A stretch of DNA of 64,000 nucleotides from Candidatus Aminicenantes bacterium. Lineage in GTDB: Bacteria; Acidobacteriota; Aminicenantia; Aminicenantales; Saccharicenantaceae. A program made the translations under genes and the position numbers. Below, piece after piece: positions 1 through 56,599 of this stretch. The stretch is from NCBI GenBank assembly GCA_041320535.1, contig JBGLNH010000001.1, forward strand, positions 863,746 to 927,745. The letters run 5' to 3'. Each line of letters opens with the position of its first letter. Positions within the stretch are counted from its first letter, which is position 1. The notes below the pieces were generated by a model, which had not been told where the DNA came from, searched no databases, and saw only the letters and a list, made by a program, of their open reading frames with translations.

Positions 1-667
1 GGCGCCAGAAATCCTGGCATTCGAGGTAGGAGCCGTCCGACCAGCGGTAGACCTCGACGGCCAGGACGTTCTCGCCGGGCTTGAGGCAGCGGGTGATGTC
101 GAACTCGACCGGGGTCTTGGAGTCCTTGCCGAAGCCGAGCTTTTCGCCGTTGACCCAGGCGTAGAAGAACGACTTGACGGCGCCGAAGTGGAGATAGACG
201 TCCATCCCGCCCCATTCCGCCGGCACGGTGAACGTCCGGCGGTAGGAGCCGACCGGATTCCGGTCGTGGGGGACGAAGGGGGGCCTGGGGTTGCGGGCGA
301 ACTCGTAGGGGATGTTGACGTAGACCGGGTAGTCGTGTCCCTGGAACATCCAGTTCGAGGGCACGGGAGTCTCTTCCCAGGCGCTCACGTCGGCGGACGG
401 CTTCATGAAATCGGTCGGCCTATCGGCCGGCCGGGGCGACCAGCGGAACTTCCAAGGCCCGTTGAGGGACAGGCGGCGCGGCGACTCCTTCGGGCCGAGC
501 CTGAGGGCCGAAGCGGCGTCGGGGAAGGGCACGAAGGTCGCGCGCGGCGCGACCGTGCCCGAGGAAACGAGGGCCGGGTTCTCCCAGTCCTCGGGCCGCG
601 TCTGGGTCGGGGCCGTCGAGATGACGAGGAGCGCGAGCGAAGCGACGAGGAGGGTGATCGTTCTCAT
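1..667 (-). CDS. Glycoside hydrolase family 2 (beta-galactosidase-like) protein, N-terminal part only; the gene runs off the left window edge
   Basis: Reverse-strand translation from the ATG at 667 gives MRTITLLVASLALLVIS... (signal peptide), then motifs typical of the GH2 sugar-binding domain (NGPWKFRW, VPSNW, YPVYVNIPYEF, NPVGSYRRTF, YAWVNGEKLG, LAVEVYRWSDGSYLE). No stop before position 1. It is absent from the ORF track because it is open at the edge. Confidence 0.7.
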   Translation of the reverse strand, partial: MRTITLLVASLALLVISTAPTQTRPEDWENPALVSSGTVAPRATFVPFPDAASALRLGPKESPRRLSLNGPWKFRWSPRPADRPTDFMKPSADVSAWEETPVPSNWMFQGHDYPVYVNIPYEFARNPRPPFVPHDRNPVGSYRRTFTVPAEWGGMDVYLHFGAVKSFFYAWVNGEKLGFGKDSKTPVEFDITRCLKPGENVLAVEVYRWSDGSYLECQDFWR

Positions 668-687
668 GGCCGTTCCTTTCGGGACGC

Positions 688-1611
688 TCAGCGGGCGGCC
701 CAGAGATCCCGGGGGTAGGCGCCGGAATCGACGAGCCCGAGGATGGCCCGGCGGAAGGCGGGCCGGTCCTCGGGGTAGGTGACGCCGAACCAGCGCTCCC
801 GCGTCGGCAGGATCCTGACCCGGACCTTCCCCTCGCGGAGGAGGGCGCCGACGACCTCGGGGATGAGGAACTCGGCCTTGGCGATGTCGGCCGCCCTGGC
901 CCGCAGGAATTCGGGGAAGCGGCGCTCGAGCTCGGCGAAGAGGGCCGGCGTGAAGCCCCAGAAGTTCATCGAGGTCCAGCTCTCCGCGGGGAGCGGCGTC
1001 CAGTCGACGTCGTTCTCGGTGTGCTTGATCCCGTCGGGGAAGCTGCGGACCTTGAGGAGCTCGCGGACGGTGACGAGGAGGCAGTCGTCGGTCGCCGAGC
1101 ACACGCCGCGGGCCACCGTGCCGTGCTCGGAGAGCGTGTTCTCGAGGCGGTAGCCGACCATGGCGAACTCCGGGAGACCGGCCGAGGCCGGCGCCTGGGC
1201 GAGGTAGGCGGCCATGGACTCGAACGCGGTCCGCCCGTAGTAGTCGTCGGCGTTGATGGCCAGGAACGGGGTCCGGACCTCGTTCCGGCAGGCCAGGATG
1301 GCCTGGCCCGTCCCCCAGGGCTTCTTGCGGCCCTCGGGCACCGCGAAGCCGGCGGGCAGGTCCTCGACGGACTGGAAGACATAGGCGGTCTCCGCGGCCC
1401 GCTCGACGCGGCGGCCGATCCTCTCCCGGAAGGCCTCCTCGATGTCCCGGCGGATGATGAAGACGACCCGGTCGAAGCCCGCCCGCAGGGCGTCGTATAC
1501 GGAGTAGTCGAGGACTACCTCGCCGCTCGGGCCGACGGGGTCGATCTGCTTCAGCCCGCCGTAGCGGCTGCCGATGCCCGCGGCCATCACCACCAGGGTC
1601 AATGAGGCCAT
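688..1611 (-). CDS. Sugar-phosphate nucleotidyltransferase family protein
   Basis: ORF 688..1644. The true start is probably the internal ATG at 1611 (MASLTLVVMAAGIGSRYGGLKQ), which has a GGAAGGAG RBS 5 nt upstream. The G-rich NTP-transferase loop MAAGxGSRxG is present; length is about 307 aa. Confidence 0.6.
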   Translation of the reverse strand: MASLTLVVMAAGIGSRYGGLKQIDPVGPSGEVVLDYSVYDALRAGFDRVVFIIRRDIEEAFRERIGRRVERAAETAYVFQSVEDLPAGFAVPEGRKKPWGTGQAILACRNEVRTPFLAINADDYYGRTAFESMAAYLAQAPASAGLPEFAMVGYRLENTLSEHGTVARGVCSATDDCLLVTVRELLKVRSFPDGIKHTENDVDWTPLPAESWTSMNFWGFTPALFAELERRFPEFLRARAADIAKAEFLIPEVVGALLREGKVRVRILPTRERWFGVTYPEDRPAFRRAILGLVDSGAYPRDLWAAR

Positions 1612-1755
1612 GACAACTCCTTCCGAGTTCCCGTCCGGCCTCATCTTATCGGAAAGCGGACGGGACGGTCAAACCCCCTCCATGGTCTTCCGCCGGCGCC
1701 GGCCCGCCTTTACTTGTCCTTTCCTATCTTATATCATTGAAGATAAGGTGCACCC

Positions 1756-2283
1756 ATGATCCGTTCCACGACCGTCATCTGCGTCCGCCACAAGGGAAAA
1801 ACGGCCATGGCCGCCGACGGTCAGGTGACCATGGGCCAGACCGTCCTCAAGGAGACCGCCCTGAAGCTCCGGCGCCTGGCCAAGGGCGACGTCCTGGCCG
1901 GCTTCGCCGGGGCCACCTCGGACGCCTTCGCCCTGTTCACCCGCTTCGAGGCGAAGTTCGAGGAGTACCGCGGCAACCTGGCCCGGGCGGCCATCGAGCT
2001 GGCCAAGGACTGGCGCATGGAGAAGTCCCTCCGCCGGCTCGACGCCCTGCTCGTCGTGGCCAACGCCGAGACGGCGCTCCTCATCTCCGGGACGGGCGAC
2101 GTCGTCGAGCCCGACGACGGCATCATCGCCATCGGCTCCGGCGGGCCCTACGCCCTGGCCGCCGCCCGGGCCCTCGTCCGCCACACCGACCTCGGGGCCC
2201 GGGCCGTCGCCGAGGAGGCCCTGGCGATCGCCGCCGGGATCTGCGTCTACACGAACCGCCATACGACCGTCGAGGAGCTCTGA
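1756..2283 (+). CDS. hslV: ATP-dependent protease subunit HslV
   Basis: 175 aa, [21 protein letters not shown]... with the Thr active-site N-terminus, full length. Directly followed by hslU. Confidence 0.9.
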
Positions 2284-2751
2284 GTGCCCATCATCCTGCC
2301 CGAGTCGATCGACCGGCCGGCGCCCGAGGGCGTCGAGGCGGAGCTCACGCCCCGCGAGATCGTCGCCGAGCTCGACAAGTACATCATCGGCCAGAAGGCG
2401 GCCAAGAAGGCCGTGGCCATCGCCCTCCGCAACCGCTTCCGCCGGCGCAAGCTCCCGCCCGACCTGGCCGACGAGATCGCGCCCAAGAACATCCTCATGA
2501 TCGGCCCCACCGGCGTCGGCAAGACCGAGATCTCGCGGCGCCTGGCCAAGCTGACCTCCTCGCCCTTCCTGAAGATCGAGGCCAGCAAGTTCACCGAGGT
2601 CGGCTACGTCGGGCGCGACGTCGAGTCCATGATCCGGGACCTCGTCCGCATCTCCGTCGACATGGTCAAGCAGGAGAAGGTCGCCGAGATCGTGGAGAAG
2701 GCCCGGGCCAGCACGGAGGAGAAGCTCCTCGACGTCCTCCTGCCGCCGCCG
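2284..2751 (+). pseudogene. hslU: HslU ATPase, N-terminal 156-aa fragment; homology stops abruptly after LLDVLLPPP
   Basis: Walker [18 protein letters not shown] and [20 protein letters not shown] match HslU up to E. coli residue ~160. The ORF then continues as low-complexity [12 protein letters not shown] to the stop at 2826. Full HslU is ~440-470 aa. Confidence 0.75.
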
Positions 2752-2758
2752 CGGCGCG

Positions 2759-3400
2759 GTCGCCGGCGCGGACGGCGCCGCCGAGGATGGTCCCCGCCAC
2801 GACCGTGCCGAAGCCGCGCATGCTGAAGACCCGGTCGACGGGCATGCGGAAGACGCCGTTGTCGGCGCGGGGCGGGACCCGCCGGCCGAGGCCGCGGAGG
2901 ACGTCGCGGAGCGCGTCGACGCCGGCGCCGCTGAGCGCCGAGACGGGGACGATCGGGGCCTCGGCCAGGAACGAGCCCCGGACGAAGCCGCGCACGGTCG
3001 CGGCGAGCTCCGCGAGCCTGGCCTCGTCGACGAGGTCGGACTTGGTCAAAGCGACGGCGCCCAGGCGGACGCCGAGGAGCCGGAGGATGTCGAAGTGCTC
3101 GCGGGTCTGGACGGCCAGGCCCTCGTCGGCGGCGACGACGAGCAGGGCGGCGTCGATGTTCGAGGCGCCGGCGGCCATGGTCCTGACGAACTTCTCGTGG
3201 CCGGGGACGTCGATGAAGACGATCTGTCTGTCGTAGGCGGGGTCGTCGAGGAAGACGAAGCCGAGGTCGATCGTCATGCCCCGGGCCTTCTCCTCGGGCA
3301 GGGTGTCGGGGTCGGTGCCGGTCAGGGCCCGGACGAGGGCGCTCTTGCCGTGGTCGATGTGGCCGGCCGTGCCGACGATGACGTGGTCTTTGCCGGTCAT
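2759..3400 (-). pseudogene. selB: Selenocysteine-specific elongation factor SelB, N-terminal GTPase fragment (~214 aa); homology ends at ...GGAVRAGD
   Basis: [36 protein letters not shown] and [21 protein letters not shown] align with the E. coli SelB domain I/II boundary. Downstream of ~2759 the frame becomes poly-Ala/Arg junk. The start ATG overlaps the selA stop (ATGA at 3397-3400). Confidence 0.75.
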
Positions 3401-4806
3401 GCCAGGAGGCCGCGCAGGGCGCGCTCGACGGCCGCGTCCTCGGAGGGCTGGATCGTCCGGAAGTCGAAGAGGACGGCGTCCTTGCGGATCCGGGCGTAGA
3501 CCGGCGGCACGAGGGCGCGGAGGCGGCGGGCCAGGTCCTCGGCGGACAGGGCGGGGGAGCGGACCGAGAGGACCTTGGTCGGCAGGGTCTCGGCCGGCAC
3601 GGCGCCGCTGCCGACCTGGGACTCGCCGTCCTCGACCGCGAGGGCGATCCCGCCGGGGAGCGCCTCGCGCAGCGCCGCCGCGACCCGCCCGGCCCGGCGT
3701 CCGATCTCGTCGGGCGACAGGGCCAGCATGCGGTAGATGGGGTGGCGCTCGGCGATCCTGCCCGGGTCGAGGAAGAGGCGGAGCGTCGCCTCGAGCGCGG
3801 CGAGCGAGAGCTTGCCGCAGCGGAAGGCCCGGGCCAGCGGGTTCTTCTTGATCCTCTGGACCCAGGCGGCCTTGCCGAGGATGAGGCCGCACTGCGGGCC
3901 GCCGACGAGCTTGTCGCCGCTGAAGCAGACGACGTCGGCGCCGGCCCGGACGCTGGCCCGGACCATGGGCTCGGGGGCGAGGCCGTAGGGTGCGAGGTCG
4001 ACGAGGGCGCCGCTGCCGAGGTCGTCGACGACGGGCACGCCCCGGGCCCGGCCGAGGGCCACGAGGTCCTCGAGCGGCGGCTCCCCGGCGAAGCCGACGA
4101 TGCGGTAGTTGCTGTGGTGGACGCGCAGGATGGCCCCGGTCGCGTCCCCGACCGCGGCCTCGTAATCGCGGAGGTGGGTCTTGTTGGTGGTGCCGACCTC
4201 GCGCAGGACGGCCCCGCTCGTGGTCATGACGTCGGGCATGCGGAACGAGCCGCCGATCTCGACCAGCTGGCCGCGCGAGACGACGACCTCCTTGCCGCGG
4301 GCCAGGGTGTTGAGGATGAGGACGGTCGCCGCGGCGTTGTTGTTGGCCGCGGTGGCGGCCTCGGCGCCGGTGAGCTCGCGGAGCAGGCCCTCGACGTGAC
4401 GGTCGCGGGAGACGCGCTTGCCGCTGTCCGGATCGAGGGCCAGGGTGGAGTAGCCGGCGGCGACCGCGGCCAGGGCCTCGCGGGCGGCCTCGGAGAGGAC
4501 GGCCCGGCCGAGCCCGGAGTGCATGACGATGCCGGTGGCGTTGATCGCCGGGCCGAGGGACGGGGCGGAGCGCGCGGCCAGGCGCGCGCCGAGGCGGGCG
4601 GTCAGGGACCGGGGATCGAGGTCGGCGGCCGGCGGCGCGGCGGCGGCGCCCTCGGTCGCGACGATGGCCGTCCGGGCCTCGTCGAGCAGGGCCCGGCACT
4701 CGGCGGCGACGGTCTCGCGGCCGTGCTCCCCGATGAGGCGGCAGACCGCCTCCTCGCGGAGCAGGGCGTCGAGCGAGGGGATCTTGCGGAGCTGCTCGTT
4801 CTGCAC
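3397..4806 (-). CDS. selA: L-seryl-tRNA(Sec) selenium transferase SelA
   Basis: 469 aa with a GTG start at 4806. SelA family hallmarks include the PLP-binding region [18 protein letters not shown]. 4-bp overlap with selB. Confidence 0.85.
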
Positions 4807-4816
4807 GGCCGGCCTC

Positions 4817-5374
4817 CTACTTCCGCGGGGAGCGGAAGCGGAGCTTGTCGAAGACCTCGGGGTGGACGTCGGCGCCGCCCGAGGCCGAGACGGGCACGGC
4901 GATCGTGAAGGCCAGCTCCTTCGGCGGCAGGCACGAGGCGTGGTCGCAGGCCTGGTAGCCGAGGGAGGCCTCGAGGGACTTGGCGCCGGGCGCGGCCGTG
5001 TCCTTGGCCTTGAGGAGGACGCCGAGGACGACCTCGCCCTCGTAGACGACGAGCTCGGCCTCCGAGTAGTCGAAACGGGCCCGCCGGCCCCTCGGGAAGA
5101 CCGTCTCGAGGACCTCGAAATCGGGGTTGTCGGCGATGACGAGCGTCGTCGGGATCATGAACTCGTCGAGGGGCGCGTCGTCGTTGATGTGGTAGCCCGC
5201 CTGGACCTTGAGGACGACGGCGGCCTTGAACGTCTCTCCCGGACGGACGGCGTCGCGGGAGACGAGGCTGCGGACCTCGACGACGTGCCGGTCTTCCTGG
5301 GCGGCGAGGGGGGAGGCCAGCGCGAACGCGGCGGCCAAAACGGCGATCCCGGGGATGTTGCGCATCGTTCTCAA
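4817..5374 (-). CDS. Secreted protein with a DsbD N-terminal (alpha) domain-like fold
   Basis: Signal peptide MRTMRNIPGIAVLAAAFALASPLAAQ. The C-terminal GYQACDHASCLPP resembles the CxxxxxC motif of the thiol:disulfide interchange protein DsbD N-terminal domain. Confidence 0.5.
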   Translation of the reverse strand: MRTMRNIPGIAVLAAAFALASPLAAQEDRHVVEVRSLVSRDAVRPGETFKAAVVLKVQAGYHINDDAPLDEFMIPTTLVIADNPDFEVLETVFPRGRRARFDYSEAELVVYEGEVVLGVLLKAKDTAAPGAKSLEASLGYQACDHASCLPPKELAFTIAVPVSASGGADVHPEVFDKLRFRSPRK

Positions 5375-5426
5375 TTAGAGACGTTTTCCCCCGCCTTGTC
5401 AACACGCGGCCGGACGGCTTCCCCTC

Positions 5427-7211
5427 TCATCGCCGCCCCTCCCAATCGATCCTGGCGATGACCTTGGACAGCAGGAAGGCGGCCAGCCCGCCCGCCGCGA
5501 GATAGGCCGCGCCGGCGCCCCAGTCCATGAAGATGACCTTGCCCACCCCGAGGAGCAGGAACAGGATCATGACCACGGCCAGCGCCCAGCCGGCGAACGG
5601 CGCCGCCTGGAGCCGGTACGCCCCGCCGTTCAGCCTGGCGATCGGCCCCCAGAACCCGCCCGGACGGACCTTCCGGTAGAAGGCCAGGAGCTTGCGCGGA
5701 TCGTCGGGCTTCGTCAGGAACGTCACCGCGAGCCAGGACGCCGTCGTCACGGCCACGATGAGCAGGATCCCGACGCCCCACGCGTCCACCCGGAAGCCGG
5801 CGCGCTCGAGCCCGGCCCCCAAGCCCCGCGTGAGCGCGTTGTCCGGCGAGATCTTGAGGAAGACCGCCGTCGCCGCCGAGGCGCTGAGGGCCGCGATCTC
5901 CGACCAGGCGTTGATCCGCCACCAGTACCAGCGCAGCAGGAGCACCAGGCCGATCCCGGCCGACAGCTCCATGACCAGCTGCCAGCCCATCTTGACGCTG
6001 CCCAGCACGTAGGAGAACCCGGCCCCGACGAGCGATACGGCCAGGACGAGGACGCGCGACGCCGCGACGTAGTGCCTCTCGCTCGCGTCCTTCCTCACGA
6101 ACGGCCGGTAGAAGTCGTTGAGCAGGAACGAGCCCGAGAGGTTGACGATGGATTCGATCGTCGACATGAAGGCCGCGAAGAGCGAGGCGACGACGATGCC
6201 CGCGATGCCCTTGGGCAGGAAGGCGAGCATGCGGGGATAGGCCGCCTCCATCTCGCCCGGGCCGGCGCCGGCGATGCCGGGCAGGACGGCGAGCGCCGCC
6301 AGGGCCGTCAGGATCCACGGCCACGGCCGGATGACGTAGTGGGCGATCGTGAACCAGAGCGTCCCCTGGACGGCGTTCTTGGCGTCCTTGCCGGCCAGCA
6401 TCCTCTGGGCGATCCAGCCGCCCCCTCCCGGCTCGGCCCCCGGATAGTAGACGGCCCACCACTGGACGAACAGGGCCACGAAGAAGGCCAACGGCAGGGC
6501 CTGGCCGAGCGGCGGGAAGACCGACAGGTAGTCCTTGCCCGCGCCCGCCCCGGCCGCCCGGGCCGCCTCGACCAGCGCTCCGATCCCGCCCGCCTTCTCG
6601 ACCGAGACGACCGACAGGACGATCGACCCGGCCATGGCCACGCCGAAGAGCAGCATGTCGGTCGCCACGACCCCCCACAGCCCGCTGAGCGTGGTGTAGA
6701 AGACCGTCAGCGCGAGGCAGACGGCCAGGGCCGCGGTGCCGCTCGTCCCGAAGACCGTCTGGATGATCCTGACCATGGCCAGGGTCACCCAGCCGAAGGT
6801 GATGCACGAGACGGGAAGGCCGAGGTAGAGGGCCTTGAAGCCGCGCAGGAACCGCGCCGCCCGGCCCGAGTAGCGGAGGTCGATGAACTCGACCTCGGTG
6901 ACGACCTCGGCCCGGCGCCAGAGGTGGGCGAAGAACAGGACCGTCAGGGCCCCGCCGAGCATGAAGTTCCACCACAGCCAGTTGCCCGAGACGCCGTCCT
7001 TGATGACGATGCCCGTCACCGCGAGCGGCGTGTCCGAGGAGAAGGTCGTCGCGACCATCGACGTGCCGAGGAGCCACCAGGGCAGGCTCCGCCCGCTCAG
7101 GAAATATTCGGAGATGCTCCGCCCGGCCCGCTTCGAGTAGTACAGGCCGAGCGCGATCGACAGGGCGAAGTACCAGGCGATGAAGAGCCAGTCGACCGTC
7201 GAGAGGCTCAT
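5427..7211 (-). CDS. Sodium:solute symporter (SSS) family transporter
   Basis: 594 aa, about 13-14 predicted TM segments with an SSS-family N-terminus (YFLSGRSLPWWLLGTSMVATTFSSDTPLAVTG). The start overlaps the stop of the upstream small gene (ATGA). Confidence 0.8.
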   Translation of the reverse strand: MSLSTVDWLFIAWYFALSIALGLYYSKRAGRSISEYFLSGRSLPWWLLGTSMVATTFSSDTPLAVTGIVIKDGVSGNWLWWNFMLGGALTVLFFAHLWRRAEVVTEVEFIDLRYSGRAARFLRGFKALYLGLPVSCITFGWVTLAMVRIIQTVFGTSGTAALAVCLALTVFYTTLSGLWGVVATDMLLFGVAMAGSIVLSVVSVEKAGGIGALVEAARAAGAGAGKDYLSVFPPLGQALPLAFFVALFVQWWAVYYPGAEPGGGGWIAQRMLAGKDAKNAVQGTLWFTIAHYVIRPWPWILTALAALAVLPGIAGAGPGEMEAAYPRMLAFLPKGIAGIVVASLFAAFMSTIESIVNLSGSFLLNDFYRPFVRKDASERHYVAASRVLVLAVSLVGAGFSYVLGSVKMGWQLVMELSAGIGLVLLLRWYWWRINAWSEIAALSASAATAVFLKISPDNALTRGLGAGLERAGFRVDAWGVGILLIVAVTTASWLAVTFLTKPDDPRKLLAFYRKVRPGGFWGPIARLNGGAYRLQAAPFAGWALAVVMILFLLLGVGKVIFMDWGAGAAYLAAGGLAAFLLSKVIARIDWEGRR

Positions 7212-7375
7212 GACCGGGCCCTGTAGATGAGCGCCCCGACGAGGCCGAAGACCGCGGCCATCAGGAGCACGGCGACCCGCTGGGCCGCCGTCCGGCAGAA
7301 GAGGACCCCGAACACGAAAAGCGGCAGGCCCACGCCCCAGAAGCCCAGGGCCATGGGCCGGTATTCTTTCTTCAT
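7208..7375 (-). CDS. Small 2-TM membrane protein (DUF3311-like) translationally coupled to the SSS transporter
   Basis: Not in the ORF track. Reverse translation gives MKKEYRPMALGFWGVGLPLFVFGVLFCRTAAQRVAVLLMAAVFGLVGALIYRARS (55 aa). Its stop overlaps the SSS start. Confidence 0.5.
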   Translation of the reverse strand: MKKEYRPMALGFWGVGLPLFVFGVLFCRTAAQRVAVLLMAAVFGLVGALIYRARS

Positions 7376-7394
7376 GCCCTCGCGGGCGACGGCC

Positions 7395-8261
7395 CTACTT
7401 CTCCCGGGGGATGGCGAAGACGGGCAGCCGGCAGTGGGCGATGACCTTCTCGGTCGTGCTGCCGAGGAAGTAGCGGGCCAGCTTGCGCACGGTCGTCGAC
7501 ATGACGATGAGGTCGAAGCCCTTCGTCTCGGCGTAGTCGATGATGCCCTCGTAGCCGTGGACGGCCTTGGCGACGTCCTCGTGGATCTCGATCGCCTTGG
7601 GCTCCCTCTTCCCGCGGGCCTGGAGCTTCTTCAGGGCCGAGCCGAACATCTCGTCGGTCAGCCGGAAGTCGTGGCCGAAGAGCTCGAGGACGTAGAGGAA
7701 GGTCAGGCTGGCGCCGAACGCCTTGGCCAGCCTCCAGGCGTGCTCCCGCTCGACGTCCTCCTTCGAGGAGAAGTCGGTCGGGACGAGGATCTTGCGGATG
7801 GGCTGGACCTTGGCGTCGGTGCCCTTGGTCACCAGGACCGGCACGCGGGCGCTGCGCAGGACCTGGTGGGTGACGCTCCCGATGAGGTTCCGCTCGCGCC
7901 CGGAGACGCCCCTGCGCCCGACGACGACGAGGTCGGCCTTCTCCTTGACGGCCGTCTTGAGGATGCCCTTGGCCGCCGAGCCCTCGGTGACGACGACCTT
8001 GGCCGGGCAGACGCCCTGGGTGGCGCAGGTGTGCTCGATCTGGGCCTTGCCGCTCGCCTTGGTGTGCTCGATCTTCTCGGCCAGCTCGGCCTGGGCGTCC
8101 GGCCAGAGCTCGTAGAGCGCCGTGGCGAACTCGGGGACGACGTGGAGGGCCGTCAGCTTGGCCTTGAAGGTCTTGGAGAACAGGTCGGCGTAGGCCAGGG
8201 CCTCCTTGGCTTCCGGGGAGAAATCGGTGGCCCAGAGGACGTTCTTGACGGGACGGATCAT
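7395..8261 (-). CDS. Universal stress protein (tandem UspA domains)
   Basis: 288 aa with two Usp repeats (ILVPTDFS... and VLVTK.. patterns) and a GRRGVSG ATP-binding motif. Confidence 0.8.
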   Translation of the reverse strand: MIRPVKNVLWATDFSPEAKEALAYADLFSKTFKAKLTALHVVPEFATALYELWPDAQAELAEKIEHTKASGKAQIEHTCATQGVCPAKVVVTEGSAAKGILKTAVKEKADLVVVGRRGVSGRERNLIGSVTHQVLRSARVPVLVTKGTDAKVQPIRKILVPTDFSSKEDVEREHAWRLAKAFGASLTFLYVLELFGHDFRLTDEMFGSALKKLQARGKREPKAIEIHEDVAKAVHGYEGIIDYAETKGFDLIVMSTTVRKLARYFLGSTTEKVIAHCRLPVFAIPREK

Positions 8262-8296
8262 GGGTCCCTCCTTTGTTCCCTCAGTTTACAACAAAC

Positions 8297-9079
8297 TCAA
8301 TACTTCTGCCAGGCCGGCTTGTGCTCGTAGACCCAGGCGTAGTAGGGCGCCATCGTCAGCTCCGAGGCCGCGTCCTTGTCGAGGACGAGGATGGCCCGCG
8401 GGTGGAGCTGGAGCACGGAGCCGGGGACCATGGCCGTCACCGGTCCCTCGATCGTCTGGGCGACGGCCTTGGCCTTCTTCTTGCCGAAGGCCAGGAGCAG
8501 GCACATCCGGGCGTCCATGATCGTGCCCAGGCCCACGGTGATGACGTGGGTGGGGACCCCGGCCTGCCCTCCGAAGCCGGCGGCGACCTCGCGGCGGGAC
8601 TCGTCCGTCAGCGTCTTGATCCGGGTCCGCGACGCGAGCGACGAGGACGGTTCGTTATAGCCGACGTGGCCGTTCGTGCCGATCCCCAGGATCTGGACGT
8701 CGATGCCGCCGGCCGAGCGGATGGCCTGCTCGTACTTCCGGCAGGCCGCGGGGACGTCGGCCGTCAGGCCGTCGGGGATGTGGATCCGCTCGCGGGCGAC
8801 GTTGAGCTGGCTGAACAGGTGGGCCCACATGTAGCTGTGGAAGGAGGCCGGGTGGGCCGGCGGGACGCCGATGTACTCGTCGAGATTGAAGCAGGTCACG
8901 CCTCCGAAGTCGAGACTGTCCTCCCGGTGCATGCGGACGAGGTTGCGGTAGAGCTGGAGCGGCGTGTTGCCGGTGGCCAGCCCGAGCACGGCGTGGGGCT
9001 TCTCGCGGACGGTGCGGGCGACGATATTGGCGGCGATCTGGCTGGCGTGTTGGCTGTCGGGCTGGATGATGATCTCCAT
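8297..9079 (-). CDS. nagB: Glucosamine-6-phosphate deaminase
   Basis: 260 aa with NagB signatures (GLATGNTPL, GIGTNGHVGYNEP). Confidence 0.85.
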   Translation of the reverse strand: MEIIIQPDSQHASQIAANIVARTVREKPHAVLGLATGNTPLQLYRNLVRMHREDSLDFGGVTCFNLDEYIGVPPAHPASFHSYMWAHLFSQLNVARERIHIPDGLTADVPAACRKYEQAIRSAGGIDVQILGIGTNGHVGYNEPSSSLASRTRIKTLTDESRREVAAGFGGQAGVPTHVITVGLGTIMDARMCLLLAFGKKKAKAVAQTIEGPVTAMVPGSVLQLHPRAILVLDKDAASELTMAPYYAWVYEHKPAWQKY

Positions 9080-9133
9080 CGGTCCTCCTCGGTCCTCTTT
9101 AGGGCCCGTTCCGTCGCGGCGCGGCCGGCGCCG

Positions 9134-9994
9134 TCAGCGCCGACGGACCCAGTATCTCTCGTACTTCTCCTCGACGCTCCGGCGGAACTTGTCGACGTGG
9201 CCGAGCACGAACCGGCCGACGTCGAGGGAATCGTCGAGGACGAGCGGCGTCAGGTCCATGGCGAACCAGAGCTGCCCGGCCTCGTCGGTCCGGTGCGACT
9301 GGAAGTAGCTGGCGTTGGCCCGGCGCCGGCCGAGCGTGGCCAGGTCGTAGCGCTTGCCGCCCTCGACCTGCGAGTCGTAGACGCCGATGAGGCCCAGGGC
9401 CAGGTTCTCCCGGCGCCCGACGTCGAGGGCCACCTTGTCGTCGTCGTCCATCCAGTCGAGCCCGCGCCAGACCTCGCAGCCGTAGACGGTCGTCGGGCGC
9501 CCGCCCGGCTCGAGCTCGCGCAGGGCCGCGAGGACGGTGTAGACGACGGCCAGGTGAGTGTCGTGCTTGTCGGCGGGATTGTGCGTGTAGAGGACCTCGG
9601 GCCGGGCGGCCCTCAGGACCTCGACCAGGTCGGACCGGAGCCGCCCGGTCCCGACGTCCTTGACCTCGGCGCTGGCGTAGCCGAGCTGGACGAGAGCGCC
9701 GTAGTCGCCGAGGACGGCCGCCTTCTCCTGCTCGCGGCGCCGGAGCGCGGCCATCTCGTCGTCGGTGAACGAGGCGTACTCGCCGGCCCGGGGCGAGCCG
9801 CCGCCGCTGGTGCAGGTGACGGCCCCGAACCACAGGTCGCGGCTGTTGAAGCACTTCTGGATGCCGTGGAAGGCCATGATCTCGAGGTCGTCCTGGTGGG
9901 CGCCGATCCCCAGGTGCGTGACGCGGCGGAGCGCGTCCCCGGCGGGGAGCCCGTCGGGGATGAAGACCGACGCGTCCGGCTTGAAGAACTTCAT
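9134..9994 (-). CDS. PIG-L/LmbE family N-acetylglucosaminyl deacetylase
   Basis: The real start is MKFFKPD at 9994 (internal to the 497-aa track ORF). Motifs HQDDLEIM and HNPADKHDTH are typical of PIG-L deacetylases. Confidence 0.75.
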   Translation of the reverse strand: MKFFKPDASVFIPDGLPAGDALRRVTHLGIGAHQDDLEIMAFHGIQKCFNSRDLWFGAVTCTSGGGSPRAGEYASFTDDEMAALRRREQEKAAVLGDYGALVQLGYASAEVKDVGTGRLRSDLVEVLRAARPEVLYTHNPADKHDTHLAVVYTVLAALRELEPGGRPTTVYGCEVWRGLDWMDDDDKVALDVGRRENLALGLIGVYDSQVEGGKRYDLATLGRRRANASYFQSHRTDEAGQLWFAMDLTPLVLDDSLDVGRFVLGHVDKFRRSVEEKYERYWVRRR

Positions 9995-11382
9995 GGGCGT
10001 GCTCCTGTCGTTTCGGGCAGGCTGGCCGCGGCGACCGCCTGGCCCACGCGCCGGCTCTTCTCGTCGAGAAGGTGGATGCGGACCCTCTCCGCCGTCTCCG
10101 GGAACGCGGCGGCGAGGACCTCGCTCGCCCGGTCGACGATGATCTTCCCCCCCGGACCGGACATGACGCGTCCGAGGACGAGGAGGTTCTTGAACCGGTA
10201 AAAGACCTCGTACCAGGGGACGGTGCAGCCGAGATAGACGCCGATCGAGTCGAAGATCGAGGCGGCGCGCTCGTCTCCCCGGCCCATCAGCGCCTGGACC
10301 TCCTCGAGGCGCGCCGGACGGCGCATCGCCTCGGGGAAGACCAGGCCCGCGGCCGGGGCCAGCCTGGCCACGGCCTGCTGGGAGAAGTAGTTGGCGCCGA
10401 CGCCGCGGTCCCCGGACCACTCGTCGACGGCCGCGCCGGGAGCGAGGTCGACCGGGACGAAGGCCAGCTCGTCGAGCCAGCCGGGGATGTGGCCGTCCAG
10501 ATCGAGGAACCCGGCCGCCTGGCTCGAGCCCATGGCCACGCCGAGGACGCCCGTCTCGCCGAGCGACAGCCGCCCGGCCAGGGCGGTGACCTCGCCGTCG
10601 TTGACGACCTCGAAGGGGACGCCCCATTCCGCGGCCAGGCGGTCGAAGATCCCCTTGACCTTGGCCTCGAAGTCCGCCTCGGGGACGGAGCGGAAGAGCG
10701 AGGCGATGCGGACCTGGTTGCGGATGATGACGCCGGCCGACGAGCCGCCGATGGCGTCGACGCGGGGGAGATGGGCGGCGGCCTTCTTCAGTCCGGCCCG
10801 GATGTGCTCGTAGTGGTACCGCGGATCGGCCTGCTCGCCGGGGGCCCAGGGGACCTCCTCGCTGTAGACGGGCTCGCCGTCGACGACGGCGGCGACCTTG
10901 TAGTCGCTCGCGCCGAGGTCGAAGCCGATGCGGCAGCCGTCGAGGTGGCCGCCGGGGAAATGGAGGCTCTCGCGGGCCTCGGGGAAGGTCGCCGGGCTGT
11001 GGAGCGCGACCTCGAACGCCCGCTCGTAGATGCGCGCCATGGTCCGGACGTCGAAGGCGCGGGCGCCCGAGGGGGAGTAGTCGGCCTTGAGGCGGCGGCC
11101 GATCGCCGCGGGCCCCTGGACATGGACGCGCCAGCCGCCGCGCGACCAGAGCAGGAACTTGACGGCCCGTTCGGCCATGCGGTAGGTGCGCTCGGGGTCC
11201 GCGTCGCGCTCGGCGACGACGGTGTCGAAGACGGAGACGAGCCCGTCCTCGCGCTCGACGGCGAGGCGGAGAGGGACGGCCCCCGCCGCCCGGGCCCGGT
11301 CGATGTGCCCGCGCCAGGCGGGGACGACGGGCTCGAAGCCCGGATCGCGGGGCGGGCGCGGGGCGGGCGCCGGGGACGTCAT
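9991..11382 (-). CDS. ASKHA-superfamily sugar kinase-like protein (ROK/BadF-like, putative amino-sugar kinase) with a ~170-aa N-terminal extension
   Basis: Start MTSPAPAP at 11382. The actin-like ATPase phosphate-1 region GFDLGASDYKVAAVVDGE is present. ATGA overlap with the deacetylase start. Placement next to nagB and the deacetylase suggests GlcNAc metabolism. Confidence 0.45.
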   Translation of the reverse strand: MTSPAPAPRPPRDPGFEPVVPAWRGHIDRARAAGAVPLRLAVEREDGLVSVFDTVVAERDADPERTYRMAERAVKFLLWSRGGWRVHVQGPAAIGRRLKADYSPSGARAFDVRTMARIYERAFEVALHSPATFPEARESLHFPGGHLDGCRIGFDLGASDYKVAAVVDGEPVYSEEVPWAPGEQADPRYHYEHIRAGLKKAAAHLPRVDAIGGSSAGVIIRNQVRIASLFRSVPEADFEAKVKGIFDRLAAEWGVPFEVVNDGEVTALAGRLSLGETGVLGVAMGSSQAAGFLDLDGHIPGWLDELAFVPVDLAPGAAVDEWSGDRGVGANYFSQQAVARLAPAAGLVFPEAMRRPARLEEVQALMGRGDERAASIFDSIGVYLGCTVPWYEVFYRFKNLLVLGRVMSGPGGKIIVDRASEVLAAAFPETAERVRIHLLDEKSRRVGQAVAAASLPETTGARP

Positions 11383-12329
11383 CGGGCCTTGAACTCCACG
11401 GTGACCGGGACGAGGAGCCGGGCGGCCTGGGCCTCGACCTTGCGGGGCCAGCTCTTCGCGGCGGGGACGGCCGGCGCCGCGATCCCGCGCGCCCAGGCGC
11501 CGGTCACCCAGTAGGTGAGCTTGGCGCCGGCCAGCCCGTTGAGCTTGAGGCCGCGGTCGACCGCGGTCTCGTCGGTCCCGGCGAAGGCGGCGGGCGGGAA
11601 GATCGCGGCCAGCCCGATCTCTCCGGCCCTCTCCGCGCCCCGGCCCCAGGCGGCGAGGAAGCCCTTGTCCCCGGAGGCCTCGAAAGACTCGCCCGCGAGC
11701 TTCTGGAGGCCCGGGCCGGCGACGAACCGGCCGAGGGTCTTGGACGAGACCAGGACGTCCTGCCGGGAGAAAGCGTTCTCGGCGAAGGCCGAGTAGCGGA
11801 CGGTCACGACCGCCTCGCCGGCCGCGGTCCGCACCGCGGGATACTCGGCCTTGATCAGGGTCCGCAGGGGGCCCGCCGCGACGACGGTCACGTCGGCGCG
11901 CGGAGCGCCCGGCCCGAAGAGGGGCACGCGGGTCTCGCCGTCCCAGAGTAAGAGGCCCCCGAGCCCGGCGGACTCCCCGGCCTCGAGGACGTTCATGCCC
12001 CACTCCTGGGGCTTGCTCTCGTCGGCCGGAAGCTTCCTCAGGATGAGGCCGGACTGGAGCTTGCCGTAGAACTCGATCCGGCCGCGCACGAGCTTGAAGG
12101 CGATGAGGTTCGATTCCCAGCCCGCTTCGGGCCCGTCGGCCGCCCAGGGCCCGCGGGCGAAGGCCTTCTCGGGCGTGATGAGCTTGGGCAGGCTGCGCTC
12201 GGGGGTGTAATAGCAGAGGAGCCGCGTCGTCGACGACGGCGGCAGGGTGCGGACAAAGACGATCTCGTCGTGGTAGCGGTCCCGGTCGAAGTCGTCGGCC
12301 TGCGTGACGACCAGGTTGTAGGCCCCCAC
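11379..12329 (-). pseudogene. Hypothetical protein (possibly DUF4861-like), apparently 5'-truncated at the junction at ~12330
   Basis: 316 aa from a GTG right at the breakpoint. There is no signal peptide or upstream RBS, and an in-frame stop lies 2 codons upstream. The family assignment is weak. Confidence 0.35.
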
Positions 12330-14010: not shown

Positions 14011-14093
14011 GCCGGGACCGATTGACTCGACCCGTCATTCCATTATAATGTCCGCGTCCCCTTATCCCGGACCCTTGAAAGGACGGCCGCCGG

Positions 14094-14555
14094 ATGCCCA
14101 CGGACCCCTTCCGCAGCGTCGCCGAGATCGTCGCGTTCGCGATCGCCAGGGAGATCGAGGCGGCCGGCGAGTACGACCGCTGGGCCAGCCTGACCCGGAC
14201 GCCCGGGCTCCGGGAGCTCTTTCACTCCCTCCGCGATCAGGAAGCCTCCCACCGCCGCCTCCTCGAGGGATTGGACGACGAGGCGATCCGGCGCCTCGAG
14301 CCGGCCTTCGTCGCCGACCTGGCGATCGTCGACGCCCTGGACGACGGACCGCTCTCGGGAGACATGTCCGTCCAGGAGGTCCTCATCTTCGCCGCCCGCA
14401 AGGAGAAACAGGCCGCGGAGCTCTATGGGTCCCTGGCCCGGATGGCGGAGGGCACGGACCACCGGCGGCTCTTCCTCTTTCTCGCCGGCCAGGAGCGGGA
14501 GCACAAGCTCAAGCTCGAGGCCGAGTACGAGCGATACGTCCTGCAGGAGAATTGA
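14094..14555 (+). CDS. Rubrerythrin-like ferritin-fold di-iron protein
   Basis: 153 aa with two E...ExxH half-sites (EIEAAGEY...QEASHRRL and KEKQAAELY...QEREHKL). Confidence 0.7.
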   Translation: MPTDPFRSVAEIVAFAIAREIEAAGEYDRWASLTRTPGLRELFHSLRDQEASHRRLLEGLDDEAIRRLEPAFVADLAIVDALDDGPLSGDMSVQEVLIFAARKEKQAAELYGSLARMAEGTDHRRLFLFLAGQEREHKLKLEAEYERYVLQEN

Positions 14556-14564
14556 AAGGAGCGC

Positions 14565-14729
14565 ATGATGGACAAATACGAATGCACCGCTTGCGGCTAC
14601 GTCTACGATCCCGCGGTCGGGGACCCCGACAACGGCATCCCGCCCGGGACGAGCTTCGACGACCTCCCGGACACCTGGGTCTGCCCCCAGTGCGGCGTCG
14701 GCAAGGACCTGTTCTCCAGGCTCGACTGA
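14565..14729 (+). CDS. Rubredoxin
   Basis: Not in the ORF track. The 54-aa translation [54 protein letters not shown] has the canonical CxxCG...CPxCG motifs. Confidence 0.85.
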
Positions 14730-14756
14730 CGCCGGCCGCGAAAACCTGGTCCGCGC

Positions 14757-18297
<3,541 letters not shown>

Positions 18298-18305
18298 GAG
18301 GGGAG

Positions 18306-19451
18306 ATGTCCGGGGCCTGGGTCGAGCGCGTCGAGATCAGCCGGGCCGCGCTCGTCCACAACATCCGCGAATTCCGCCGGATCATCGGCCGCGGGCGGCG
18401 GTTCCTGGCGGTCGTCAAGGCCAACGCCTACGGCCACGGGCTCCTCGAGACGAGCGCGATCGCCGTCGCCGAGGGCGTCGACTGGCTCGGCGTCGACTCG
18501 GTCGACGAGGGGGTCGCGCTGCGCGAGGCCGGTCTCGACCTCCCCGTGCTCGTCCTCGGCTACGCCCCGTTCGGCTCCCTGGAAGAGGCCGTGGCCCGGG
18601 ACCTGCGCCTGACGGTCTACAACCGGGAGACGGTCAAGCGGCTGGCCGCGCTCGCCGCCCGGTCCGGAAAGACCGTCCGCGTCCACGTCAAGATCGAGAC
18701 CGGGACATGGCGTCAGGGGGTCGCGCCCCGGGACCTCGGGGCCTTCGCCCGCGAGCTGCGGAAACACCCGGGCCTCGTCGTCGAGGGGCTGTCCTCGCAC
18801 TTCGCGAACATCGAGGACACGACCAAGCACGACTACCCCCGGCTCCAGCTCGACTGCTTCCGGGCGGCCTGCCGCGAGATCGAGTCCTCCGGCCTGAGCG
18901 TCCCGTTCAAGCACATGTCCTGCACGGCCTCGACCATCCTGTTCCAGGAGCCGGACCTCAACCTGGCCCGGATCGGGATCGGGCTCTACGGGCTGTGGCC
19001 GTCGAAGGAGACGTACCTGTCCTCGGTCCTCGAGAAGAAGGAGCCCCCGGACCTCAAGCCGGTCCTGTCCTGGAAGGCCCGCGTCGCCCAGATCAAGAAG
19101 GTCCCGGCGGGGGCCTTCGTGGGCTACGGCTGCACTTTCCGGACGACCCGGCCGACATCCCTGGCCGTCGTCCCCGTCGGCTATTACGACGGCTACGACC
19201 GCCGGCTTTCCAACGCCGCCCACCTCCTGGTCAAGGGCCGGCGGGCCCCGGTCCGCGGCCGGGTGGCCATGGACTTCATCACGGCGGACGTCACCGACAT
19301 TCCCGGGGTCGGGCTCGAGGACGAGGTGACGCTGCTCGGCCGGGACGGCCGGGAGCGGATCACCGCCGAGGACCTGGCCGCGTTCGCCGGGACCATCGGC
19401 TACGAGGTCCTGGCCCGCATCAACCCGCGGATACCCCGCGTCGTCGTCTGA
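18306..19451 (+). CDS. alr: Alanine racemase
   Basis: The PLP-Lys motif VVKANAYGHG and overall Alr layout; 381 aa. Confidence 0.85.
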   Translation: MSGAWVERVEISRAALVHNIREFRRIIGRGRRFLAVVKANAYGHGLLETSAIAVAEGVDWLGVDSVDEGVALREAGLDLPVLVLGYAPFGSLEEAVARDLRLTVYNRETVKRLAALAARSGKTVRVHVKIETGTWRQGVAPRDLGAFARELRKHPGLVVEGLSSHFANIEDTTKHDYPRLQLDCFRAACREIESSGLSVPFKHMSCTASTILFQEPDLNLARIGIGLYGLWPSKETYLSSVLEKKEPPDLKPVLSWKARVAQIKKVPAGAFVGYGCTFRTTRPTSLAVVPVGYYDGYDRRLSNAAHLLVKGRRAPVRGRVAMDFITADVTDIPGVGLEDEVTLLGRDGRERITAEDLAAFAGTIGYEVLARINPRIPRVVV

Positions 19452-19604
19452 GAAGGAACATGCCTTCCGGCTGCCGCCGGCCGCGGAGGGATCTCGGGAA
19501 GCGGCCCTCCACCGCCTCTTCCGGGAACGCCCCCGCGCGGGGCGGATCCCTCGACTCCCGGATACCGCTCAACCCTTGATCCGCCGCCCCGAAAAGATTT
19601 AAAA

Positions 19605-19629
19605 AAACACTACTAATTCGGTAGTGTTT
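19605..19629. promoter_or_regulatory. AT-rich perfect inverted repeat AAACACTAC-N7-GTAGTGTTT, candidate operator upstream of the DUF438/hemerythrin/PAS gene
   Basis: A 9-bp perfect arm palindrome inside the only strongly AT-rich stretch of this GC-rich intergenic region (gatttaaaaaaacactactaattcggtagtgtttaatgtatcat). It is followed by a TATCAT -10-like element about 30 nt before the ATG at 19663. Confidence 0.4.
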
Positions 19630-19662
19630 AATGTATCATAGGCGTGAACGAGAGGTGAGGCC

Positions 19663-20871
19663 ATGGTCAACGACGCGAAAGCCAGGAAAGAGATCCTGAA
19701 GGACATCATCCGCGACCTCCACAAGGGCGCTGACGTCGACGGCCTGAAGAAGCGCTTCGGCGAGCTCGTCCGCGACGTCTCGGGCGCCGAGATCGGGGCC
19801 ATGGAGCAGGAGCTCATCTCCGAAGGGCTGCCGGAGGACGAGATCCGCAAGCTCTGCGATATCCACGTCAAGGTCTTCGAGGAGTCCCTGGCCTCCGCCC
19901 CAGCCCCGGCCACGGTTCCCGGACACCCTCTCCACACTTTGACGGAGGAGAACCGGGCCATGGAAAAGGTCGTCTCGGAGGTCCAGGCGATCCTGACCCG
20001 CCTCAAGGAGGAGCCGGCCCACAAGGACTGGCCGGCCGACCGGGCCCGCCTGGCCGCGCTCGCCGCCTCCCTGTCAGAGGTCGAGAAGCACTACCTCAAG
20101 AAGGAGAACCAGCTCTTCCCCCGCCTCGAGGACAAGGGGATCAGCGGCCCCTCGAAGGTCATGTGGGCCGTCCACGACGACATCCGGGCCCACCTCAAGG
20201 ACCTCCGGCGGGCGGTCGAGCTCGCCGACGCGGACCTCGTCGTCAGGACCGGCTCGTGGGTCCTGCAGGAGATGAGGGACATGATCACGAAGGAGGAGAA
20301 GATCCTCTTCCCGATGGCGCTCGAGACGCTCGACGACGCCGCCTGGGCCCGGGTCAAGAAAGGGGAGGAGGAGGTCGGCTACGCCTGGATCTCCCCGGCC
20401 CCGGCCTGGTCCCCGGGCCCGGCCCGGGAGCCCGCCGCGGGCGCGTCCGCCGGCGGCCCGATCGCCCTCGACACCGGGGCCCTGACGACCGGGCAGATCG
20501 ACCTCATGCTGACGCGCCTGCCCGTCGACATCTCCTTCGTCGACGAGACCGACACGGTCGTCTACTACTCGGGGACGGCCGACCGGATCTTCCCGCGGAC
20601 GCCCGGCGTCATCGGGCGCAAGGTCCAGAACTGCCACCCGCCGAAGAGCGTCGACGTCGTCGAGCGCATCCTGGCCGCCTTCCGGTCCGGCGAGCGCGAC
20701 GAGGCCGAGTTCTGGATCGAGTCGGGCGGCAGGTTCATCCACATCCGCTACTTCGCCCTGCGGGACAGGTCGGGGGCCTACAAGGGGACGCTCGAGGTCA
20801 CCCAGGACGTGACCTCGATCCGGCGCCTTCGGGGCGAGCGCCGTCTGCTCGACTGGGACGGCGCGGCGTGA
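19663..20871 (+). CDS. DUF1858-DUF438-hemerythrin-PAS sensor protein
   Basis: Hemerythrin HHE cation-binding motifs (DIHVKVFEE, WAVHDDIRAHLKD) and a C-terminal PAS-like domain. This architecture is typical of O2/NO-responsive sensor proteins. Confidence 0.75.
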   Translation: MVNDAKARKEILKDIIRDLHKGADVDGLKKRFGELVRDVSGAEIGAMEQELISEGLPEDEIRKLCDIHVKVFEESLASAPAPATVPGHPLHTLTEENRAMEKVVSEVQAILTRLKEEPAHKDWPADRARLAALAASLSEVEKHYLKKENQLFPRLEDKGISGPSKVMWAVHDDIRAHLKDLRRAVELADADLVVRTGSWVLQEMRDMITKEEKILFPMALETLDDAAWARVKKGEEEVGYAWISPAPAWSPGPAREPAAGASAGGPIALDTGALTTGQIDLMLTRLPVDISFVDETDTVVYYSGTADRIFPRTPGVIGRKVQNCHPPKSVDVVERILAAFRSGERDEAEFWIESGGRFIHIRYFALRDRSGAYKGTLEVTQDVTSIRRLRGERRLLDWDGAA

Positions 20872-20942
20872 ACGGGCTTGTCAGAGCGGGGCGGGCGGCG
20901 TAAGATAAGGAAGTCTTTTCCCGCGACAACGAGGAGTCACCG

Positions 20943-21164
20943 ATGAAAGAGAAGATCGAACAGGCTTTGAACAAGGTCCGCCCGGCCCTGCAGGCCGACG
21001 GCGGCGACGTCGAGCTCGTCGAGGTCGGCGCGAACGGCGTCGTCAAGGTCCGTCTCAAGGGCGCCTGCGGCGGCTGCCCGATGTCCCAGCTGACCCTGAA
21101 GATGGGCATCGAGCGCATCCTGAAGAAAGAGGTCCCGGAGGTCGTGTCGGTCGAAGCCGTCTGA
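20943..21164 (+). CDS. NifU-like (Nfu) Fe-S cluster assembly domain protein
   Basis: 73 aa with the [13 protein letters not shown] CxxC motif typical of the Nfu/NifU C-terminal domain. Confidence 0.75.
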
Positions 21165-21189
21165 GGCTTCCCGCTCCCCGGGAGGGACG

Positions 21190-21900
21190 ATGACCAGCGT
21201 CTATCTCGACCGCATCGCGGCGACGCCGCTGCACCCCGAGGTCCGGGAGGCCATGCGGCCCTACCTCGAGGACGCCTTCGGCAACCCCCAGAGCCTCCAC
21301 GCGCACGGACGCCGCGCCCAGGAGGCGGTCGAAGAGGCCCGCGGCGACGTCGCCGCCCGCGTCGGGGCCCGCGCGGACGAGATCTATTTCACCTCGAGCG
21401 GCAGCGAGGCCAACAACTTCGCCGTCAAGGGCCTGGCCCTCGGCCAGCAGGCGCGGGGCCGGCACGTCGTCGTCTCGGCCATCGAGCACAGCTCCGTCCT
21501 CAACTCGGTCAAGGCTTTGGAGCGGCAGGGCTTCACGGCCGCCCTCGTCCCCGTCGACGGGCAGGGCAGGGTCGATCCGGCCGAGGTCGAGAAGGCCCTG
21601 ACCCCGGAGACCGTCCTCGTTTCCGTGATGACGGCCAGCAACGAGGTCGGGACGATCGAGCCGGTCGCCGCGATCGCCGCGGCGGCGAAGAAGAGGGGCG
21701 CCCTCGTCCACACCGACGCCGTGGCCGCCGCCGGCAGCGTCCCCCTCGACGTCCGGGCCCTGGGCGTCGACGCCCTGAGCCTGGCCGGCGACCAGTTCCA
21801 CGGCCCCAAGGGCGCGGCGGCCCTCTTCGCCCGCCGGATCACCGTGCCGGTGCAGCTGCTCGCGGAAGGAACGGAACGGCCAGTTGTACGCTGTCAGTGA
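21190..21900 (+). pseudogene. Cysteine desulfurase (NifS/IscS family), 3'-truncated; homology ends at ~21837 (..GAAALFARR) and the ORF stops at 21900
   Basis: PLP-dependent class V aminotransferase features (SGSEANN, HTDAVAA, ALSLAGDQFHGPKG) cover only about 216 of the ~390 aa. The conserved GGGQE and the PLP-Lys region downstream are missing. Confidence 0.75.
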
Positions 21901-40109: not shown

Positions 40110-40721
40110 ATGCCTCGAGCCGCACGCATCGTCTATCCCGGCGTCCCCCACCACATCACTCAGCGCGGCAACCGGCGTCAATCCGTCTTCTTCTCCGACG
40201 ACGACAAGGCCCTTTATCTTCGCCTGCTCGCGAAATGGGCGGCCAAAGCGGGCTTGACCATCTGGGCCTACTGCCTCATGGACAACCATGTCCATCACGT
40301 CGCGGTCCCCGAAAGGGTATCGAGCCTAGCTGAGGCCATCGGTCAGACCCATAAGGCCTACACCAGGATCATCAACGAACGGGAAGTCTGGCGCGGCTTC
40401 CTCTGGCAGGGCCGGTTCGGTTCGTTCCCGATGGATGAGCCTTATCTCTACAGGGCCATGCGCTACGACGAGCTCAATCCCGTTCGCGCGAAGATCGTCC
40501 AAGATCCCGCGGAATATCGCTGGTCGAGCGCTCGGTGCCACATCATGGGTCTTCCCGATCCCTTGGTCGCCGGGAATCCTCTCGGCATGAGCGGGCGGGA
40601 ATGGGCGGCCTATCTCAAGGAAGGGCTGATGGAATCGGAAATATCCCTGTTCCGGGCCCACATCAAGAAGTCAACGCCCATCGGCAGCGAGGATTTCGCC
40701 GCGTGCCGTCCTCGGCTTTGA
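40110..40721 (+). mobile_element. REP-associated tyrosine transposase (RAYT / TnpA-REP, IS200/IS605-like Y1 transposase)
   Basis: MPRAARIVYPGVPHHITQRGNRRQSVFF...IWAYCLMDNHVHHV (HuH motif)...FLWQGRFGSFPMDE...YDELNPVRAKIV..PAEYRWSS (catalytic Tyr region) matches the RAYT family, adjacent to REP hairpins. Confidence 0.8.
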
Positions 40722-50992: not shown

Positions 50993-51185
50993 GTCCGTTC
51001 TCCCGGAGCGGCGGCGCTCGTTATCTTCGCCGATTCTCAATGCACGAACCGTGCCAAAACAGAAGCGTCCCTTACCGCTAGGCTCGACTTCGATCCGGTC
51101 TTCGAGGTGTCCGACCTCATGACAAGAAGTGTTCGCTATCGGACACTTGTTGTATAATACCTGCGGGCCGACAGGCATACCCTCG

Positions 51186-51201
51186 GGGCATGGAACTTGC
51201 A
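51186..51201 (+). promoter_or_regulatory. Sigma-54 promoter GGCATGGAACTTGCA (-24 GG / -12 GC) about 27 nt upstream of the NtrC-type regulator gene
   Basis: Matches TGGCAC-N5-TTGCA with one mismatch in the -24 element and correct spacing. An 8-bp inverted repeat GTGTCCGA...TCGGACAC (51106-51147) lies further upstream. Confidence 0.5.
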
Positions 51202-51227
51202 CATACAGTCCCCGAAAGGAGCCGGCG

Positions 51228-56488: not shown

Positions 56489-56599
56489 GAGGGTCCCTCT
56501 CGTCTTTTTGGGCTGGCCGTGCAACATTCAGCCGGGTCGTTGCGTATCCCTGGATAGAGGGCCGGACCTCGGGATCCATTCTCTCGCCGGAGGGGAGCC

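Follow-up and report, generated by a model that had tools for sequence, protein, structure and literature searches.

Two gene pairs meet head-on in the window, by which we mean the whole 64-kb stretch of DNA that was analysed. On the plus strand, an intact hslV gene (1756-2283; 175 aa; Pfam Proteasome match, 1e-19) is followed by an hslU ORF (2284-2826), of which the first part (2284-2757) corresponds to codons 1-158 of 463, the N-terminal AAA+ region as far as the beginning of the I-domain, and the last 22 codons come from reading through selB on its opposite strand. On the minus strand, an intact selA gene (3397-4806; 469 aa; Pfam SelA, 1.8e-140) shows no visible decay and lies directly upstream of a 5´ fragment of selB, which starts at 3400 (MTGKD...) and extends to 2755, taking in codons 1-215 of 641 with the GTPase domain and the start of domain II. 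A gene for a DsbD_N-domain protein of 182-185 aa (4817-5374, minus strand) adjoins the selA-selB pair upstream, with a sodium:solute symporter beyond it, and the same order is found in a sister contig (L001, described below).

A preliminary description of this DNA, made from the sequence, had hslU and selB colliding head-on, both of them cut, at ~2751 and ~2759. The collision is indeed present, with HslU residues 1-158 of 463 meeting SelB residues 1-215 of 641 at 2754-2756, only a few bases away from those two positions. Each ORF had also been said to continue as junk through the other gene, and past ~2755 the hslU and selB frames do consist of antisense read-through of each other.

Neither truncated gene encodes a full-length protein. 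A complete HslU has an N-, an I- and a C-domain in ~440-465 aa and scores above the cut-off of TIGR00390; the window ORF matches model positions 1-138 of 441 only, with 225.6 bits against the equivalog cut-off of 362, and its alignments to HslU structures in the PDB end at about query residue 156-161, reaching HslU residues up to ~150. A complete SelB has EF-Tu-like domains I-III and C-terminal winged-helix domains. The SelB of the window covers model positions 1-208 of 581 in TIGR00475 and matches E. coli SelB (PDB 5lzb) over residues 2-206; the Beta-barrel_SelB and WHD_2nd/3rd domains that are present in the SelB of L001 are all missing from the window, leaving the fragment without its winged-helix domains, to which the selenocysteine insertion element binds. 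When the complete HslU and SelB of the sisters were run against the 64-kb window by tblastn, neither of the absent C-terminal regions turned up, and a reciprocal junction with the other gene halves was not found there either.

Intact genes in sister assemblies

Exact-protein look-up of SelA and HslV brought up three sister assemblies (GCA_041304285.1, GCA_041304065.1 and GCA_041304165.1), with further matches to Logan contigs from runs SRR28346269 and SRR28346254; a literature search found no mention of these accessions and run identifiers. Three sister genome bins and a single Logan contig contain the exact HslV protein, in every case with hslU following, and the exact SelA protein occurs on sister contig JBFYNR010000067.1 (L001), where it is followed by an intact selB. 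In the sisters, whose DNA is 99.8-100% identical to that of the window, the intact hslV-hslU pair (HslU of 463 aa; contig L002) and the intact selA-selB pair (SelB of 641 aa; L001) lie on different contigs. In GCA_041304285.1, one locus is on contig 067, of 26.9 kb, and the other on contig 076, of 31.3 kb.

At the protein level, HslU residues 1-158 of the window are 100% identical to the intact 463-aa HslU of L002, through window position 2757, and SelB residues 1-215 are identical to the intact 641-aa SelB of L001, ending in ...AVRAGDR at window position 2756. Near codon 159, the intact hslU reads ...RRRDEAAEDEEETRF..., and near codon 216, the intact selB reads ...VAVYPAGLVTRVRG.... At the DNA level, megablast aligned window 1-2756 to the hslVU contigs at 99.8-100% identity, and window 2751-12326 to the interior of L001 in reverse orientation, without gaps and at 99.84% identity. 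Both flanks of this interior in L001 (2480 bp on one side and 8307 bp on the other) are missing from the window, and so is more than 8 kb of parental flank on each side of the junction.

The junction between hslU and selB

We placed the junction by projecting the alignments of L002, L004 and L001 base by base onto the window. What we call block A, from the hslVU contig, ends at 2754-2756, where block B, from the selAB contig in inverted orientation, begins. The DNA of the hslU parent matches through 2756 and that of the selB parent from 2755, or from 2751 if one mismatch is accepted, and the overlap of the two matches at 2755-2756 therefore leaves an uncertainty of 2-3 bp in the position of the join. 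The hslU parent reads ...CCGCCGCCGCGGCG up to the join and GCGCGACGAGG after it; the selB parent, as reverse complement, reads ...GTAGACGGCGA up to the join and CGCGGTCGCC after it. All that the parents have in common there is GCG (...CCGCCGCCGCGGCGGCGCGAC for hslU versus ...GTAGACGGCGACGCGGTCGCC for the reverse complement of selB).

An assembly chimera formed through a low-complexity tract had been proposed for this site. The ccgccgccgcggcg tract is native to hslU and belongs to hslU only, the selB parent having gacggcgacgcgg in its place, which rules it out as a repeat common to the two parents. A misjoin by k-mer or overlap would need much more than the 2-3 bp that these do share. The break in hslU falls on a perfect 16-bp GC-rich palindrome, with CGCCGCCG before the break and CGGCGGCG after it. 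Sister contigs L003 and L004 have an 8-bp deletion exactly at this palindrome, which puts their hslU out of frame, and block A is 100% identical to both of them, without a mismatch in 2.7 kb, as far as 2753, where the 8-bp indel begins. A GC-rich hairpin combined with an indel polymorphism is a classic stopping place for a short-read contig.

The indel is also of note for the sisters themselves. The 8 bp are missing inside the palindrome CGCCGCCGCGGCGGCG in GCA_041304285.1 and GCA_041304165.1 (L003:2720-2745 and L004:9630-9655 versus L002:9285-9320, which corresponds to window 2745-2760), and hslU is frameshifted there; in L003, it was called as a 228-aa C-terminal fragment. In GCA_041304065.1, hslU is intact with 463 aa. 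Either some members of the population carry a real inactivating allele, or the hairpin caused an error in assembly.

Exact searches with the 50-nt junction, and with 50-60-nt flanks on either side, gave no match in genome or JGI metagenome collections. The chimeric hslU ORF of 180 aa likewise has no exact protein on record, the assembly of the window evidently being outside that index.

Seven joins and eight blocks

What had been described as a single breakpoint is actually one of seven evenly spaced joins, a pattern compatible with concatenated, length-sorted contigs. The joins, at ~2755, 12326, 21835-21900, 31295, 40697, 49944 and 59192, divide the window into eight blocks (A to H), and megablast traced seven of the eight, A to G, each to a different sister contig at 99.8-100% identity. 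Block B (2755-12326; ~9572 bp; minus orientation) is collinear with positions 2481-12056 of L001.

Join 2 lies at 12326/12327 with one base in common, position 2481 of L001 and position 2664 of L006 both mapping to 12326. It sets a DUF4861 gene on the minus strand, which is missing its first 100 codons, against a recD2-like helicase gene on the plus strand, which is missing its first 169, and intact versions of both (415 aa and 730 aa, respectively) are found on sister contigs. Join 3 falls somewhere in the 66 bp of 21835-21900: sister contig L006 ends at 21846, and block D, which starts within an alpha/beta-hydrolase gene whose first 113 codons are missing, matches L010 from 21901. The ORF at 21190-21900 has its stop codon directly before this first matching base of block D. 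Join 4 is at 31295/31296, where block E, collinear with L017, starts; the sister contigs over block D end at 30521 and 30604, so that the left side of this join is uncertain over 691 bp. No sister contig covers 21835-21900 or 30605-31295. Because exact look-ups of window 37073-39889, 21190-21900 and 61550-62833 gave no match, block H has no parent, and three placements are imprecise: that of join 3, that of join 4 on its left side and that of join 7 on its right.

At join 5 (40697-40713), block E ends 8 codons before the stop codon of an IS200/IS605-type Y1 transposase gene, and block F starts at or before 40713. Between them, the fifteen bases GCCGCGTGCCGTCCT (40698-40712) match neither the L017/L018 side nor L014-L016, and look like a ragged contig tip. 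The transposase gene itself occupies 40110-40697 on the plus strand, and upstream of it on the same strand, 37073-39889 encodes a 938-aa protein without a Pfam match. The two sister contigs that bear the transposase also stop within 60-332 bp, suggesting that it belongs to a mobile element that is repeated. Join 6 is at 49944/49945, where block F ends and, 3 bp off, sister contig L014 starts; block G begins within a membrane-fusion-protein gene whose last 69 codons are missing. At join 7 (59188-59192), block G ends 31 codons into the 3´ end of a MacB-like permease gene, a member of a paralogue family.

The gene content of some blocks deserves mention in its own right. A dense cluster of MacB-like ABC permease paralogues (MacB_PCD and FtsX domains) occupies 49945-59192, corresponding to sister L008:1-22454, with at least two such paralogues in the window and six in the L008 sister contig; those in the window have ~73% DNA identity over ~335-bp stretches near their 3´ ends. 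Neighbours in the cluster include PadR regulators, a pair formed by a sigma-54 response regulator and a histidine kinase, and an outer-membrane factor. An oxygen/redox-stress set is found at 14079-21900, comprising a rubrerythrin-like protein, rubredoxin, a rubredoxin-reductase-like flavoprotein, a NifU-like protein and a DUF438/hemerythrin/PAS protein (19663-20871). Together with selA and selB, this set suggests an anaerobe or microaerophile that uses selenoproteins.

Wherever a sister contig runs across a join, it carries on into sequence that is missing from the window, and since the sister flanks beside each block are missing, a local reshuffle of one 64-kb region is ruled out. The joins for which both parents are known have 0-3 bp in common. 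No k-mers of 15 or more bases are common to the block ends, except for one 18-bp GC-rich match between the end regions of joins 4 and 5, which is probably due to chance.

Positions of the joins and lengths of the blocks

The joins tend to fall where other assemblies break. Of 28 mapped sister contig ends, five are no more than 110 bp away from a join, versus 0.66 expected (Poisson p ~6e-4, in a rough test that treats the sister contig ends as independent). The five are L004 at +107 bp from join 1, L006 inside the interval of join 3, L018 at +60 bp from join 5, and, both at join 6, L014 at +3 bp and L009 at -94 bp (outside); L017 ends 332 bp past join 5. Features prone to breaking assemblies are also present at three of the joins, namely the GC palindrome with its 8-bp indel at join 1, the IS200-type transposase at join 5 and the MacB paralogues at join 7. 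The clustering of sister ends, taken with the palindrome and indel, the transposase and the paralogues, points to joins that are contig termini set by the assembly graph.

The lengths of the complete blocks are 9572 bp for B, 9509-9575 bp for C, 9395-9461 bp for D, 9402-9417 bp for E, 9232-9247 bp for F and 9244-9248 bp for G. All six are within 3.5% of each other and fall in three steps, ~9.57, 9.40 and 9.25 kb. Within the few-bp ambiguity of the joins, these lengths are compatible with a strictly descending order, rather than proof of sorting; if the most literal join positions are used, the order is broken twice, by 2-7 bp (9574 bp for C versus 9572 bp for B, and 9395 bp for D versus 9402 bp for E). 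Block A may share its left end with L004, a contig of 9765 bp, in which case it would be ~9650 bp long and again longer than block B. Near-equal and falling lengths of this kind are what a 64-kb slice through a length-sorted list of contigs would give, and are unexpected from rearrangement, library chimeras or arbitrary shuffling. The sister bins at NCBI are not sorted by length, so the sorting would come from some other step.

Discussion

We infer that the blocks are contigs and that they were concatenated in silico, and put the probability that 2754-2756 is a boundary between separate contigs of a fragmented bin, joined in this way without a spacer, at roughly 85%. Separate contigs of a short-read-type genome bin would have been written one after another with nothing between them, apparently in order of falling length; this could have happened in the source record or at the step that excised the 64-kb window. 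The first of the two contigs at join 1 would end in hslU, at the GC palindrome where the sisters have their 8-bp indel, and the next, in reverse orientation, would happen to end within selB. The two genes would then not be joined in the cell, and their other halves would be on other contigs. Judging by sisters of 99.8-100% identity, hslU and selB are most likely full-length, ordinary genes in the organism itself. Multiple joins, with traced blocks that are each collinear with a distinct sister contig, assembled independently from the same population, are what concatenated contigs should give, and the window has them (seven joins, eight blocks), at places where assemblies break. The fifteen unmatched bases at join 5 also fit the ragged tip of a contig.

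Under every reading that we considered, this is not a native gene arrangement. The preliminary description had already argued for an artefact, and a non-native, artefactual join is still the leading reading, but none of the three mechanisms that it named, an assembly chimera, an MDA-type inversion chimera or a genuine disruptive rearrangement, is supported by the data. The rival readings that follow all agree less well with the ordered, near-equal lengths and with the coincidence of joins and sister ends.

A chimeric contig might have arisen during sequencing or assembly, so that the join would exist in the deposited sequence and not in the cell. Such a contig could come from library ligation, from concatemeric long reads of size-selected fragments of ~9.5 kb, or from a scaffolder or a merging of bins that leaves no Ns. 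The blunt joins with 0-3 bp in common are like those of ligation, the similar block sizes could reflect a size-selected insert library, and the intact genes of the sister assemblies are as expected. However, it would be extraordinary for a single molecule to contain seven ligated inserts in a row, and the sizes of inserts are not expected to fall smoothly in three steps. Breaks made by ligation would also be random, rather than placed at sister ends, a palindromic indel, an IS element and a paralogue family, and there is no common repeat that could mislead a graph or overlap assembler. We thus regard a chimeric contig as unlikely.

The regularity of the blocks also raises the question of a synthetic shuffle, in which a genome would have been cut into pieces of ~9.2-9.6 kb from distant loci that were then rejoined in random order and orientation. 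Regular sizes and blunt joins are in keeping with such a procedure, as are blocks that are unrelated to each other and separated from their native neighbouring sequence, which is missing from the window. Arbitrary cuts, though, would not favour the contig ends of independent sister assemblies, nor would they hit the hslU palindrome and indel exactly. A clean cut-and-paste leaves no fifteen unmatched bases of the kind seen at join 5, and blocks of random size would not be ordered by length. The chance that the window was made in this manner seems small.

We find it very improbable that illegitimate recombination in this strain produced a genuine inversion or translocation that inactivated both hslU and selB. 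The 2-3 bp of microhomology at the junction would be possible with end-joining, and the loss of hslU might be tolerated, given that two sisters have the frameshifting 8-bp deletion in hslU, but selA is intact just upstream, the window contains neither the reciprocal junction nor a missing gene half, and there are six more abrupt joins at intervals of ~9.4 kb, each of which truncates a gene or its flank. Seven events spaced 9.2-9.6 kb apart would be needed within 64 kb, and the near-identical sisters, in which the arrangement is intact, have none of them. It is scarcely to be expected, either, that the join is physically real through the shattering of the chromosome, or of an extrachromosomal concatemer, into pieces of ~9.4 kb and their re-ligation by end joining, which would mean that hslU and selB, among other genes, had been destroyed.

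As a contig boundary, the head-on meeting of hslU and selB has no biological significance, and its value lies in quality control. Contig joins without a spacer recur in the window roughly every 9.4 kb, and other windows cut from this source probably all have them as well. Any call of a breakpoint, truncated essential gene, fusion or head-on collision at ~2755, 12326, 21.9 kb or 31.3 kb should be discarded, as should such calls at 40.7 kb, 49.9 kb and 59.2 kb, and the inference of operons or synteny must stop at the join coordinates.

Comparison with known systems

In gene order and N-terminal domains, both of which are ordinary and identical to those of the sisters, the locus resembles canonical hslVU and selAB operons. 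What sets it apart is that hslU and selB are each represented by no more than their 5´ third, the contigs presumably ending at that point.

Two kinds of chimera offer partial parallels. MDA (phi29) inversion chimeras also have head-on inverted junctions with very short microhomology, and the segments that they link are typically inverted and separated by a few kb of the same template. The partners at join 1, in contrast, lie on different contigs of 27-31 kb in one sister assembly, with flanks of more than 8 kb missing from the window, and similar joins recur every ~9.4 kb. Misjoins by de Bruijn or overlap assemblers resemble the junction in being non-native, in truncating genes and in not being found in related assemblies, but they depend on a shared repeat that is no shorter than the k-mer or overlap, and the parents of join 1 share only 2-3 bp.

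The remaining comparison is with draft genomes or genome bins whose multi-FASTA records have been concatenated. The window differs from these in that the usual N-gap or record break is missing, and for this reason a contig boundary could not be recognised when the DNA was first described. It is like them in that genes are cut at arbitrary codons on both sides of the joins, with no homology and in arbitrary orientation, in the many joins per window, in block lengths that are compatible with the order of a sorted contig list, and in breaks that fall at repeats, at polymorphic sites and at the ends of sibling contigs.
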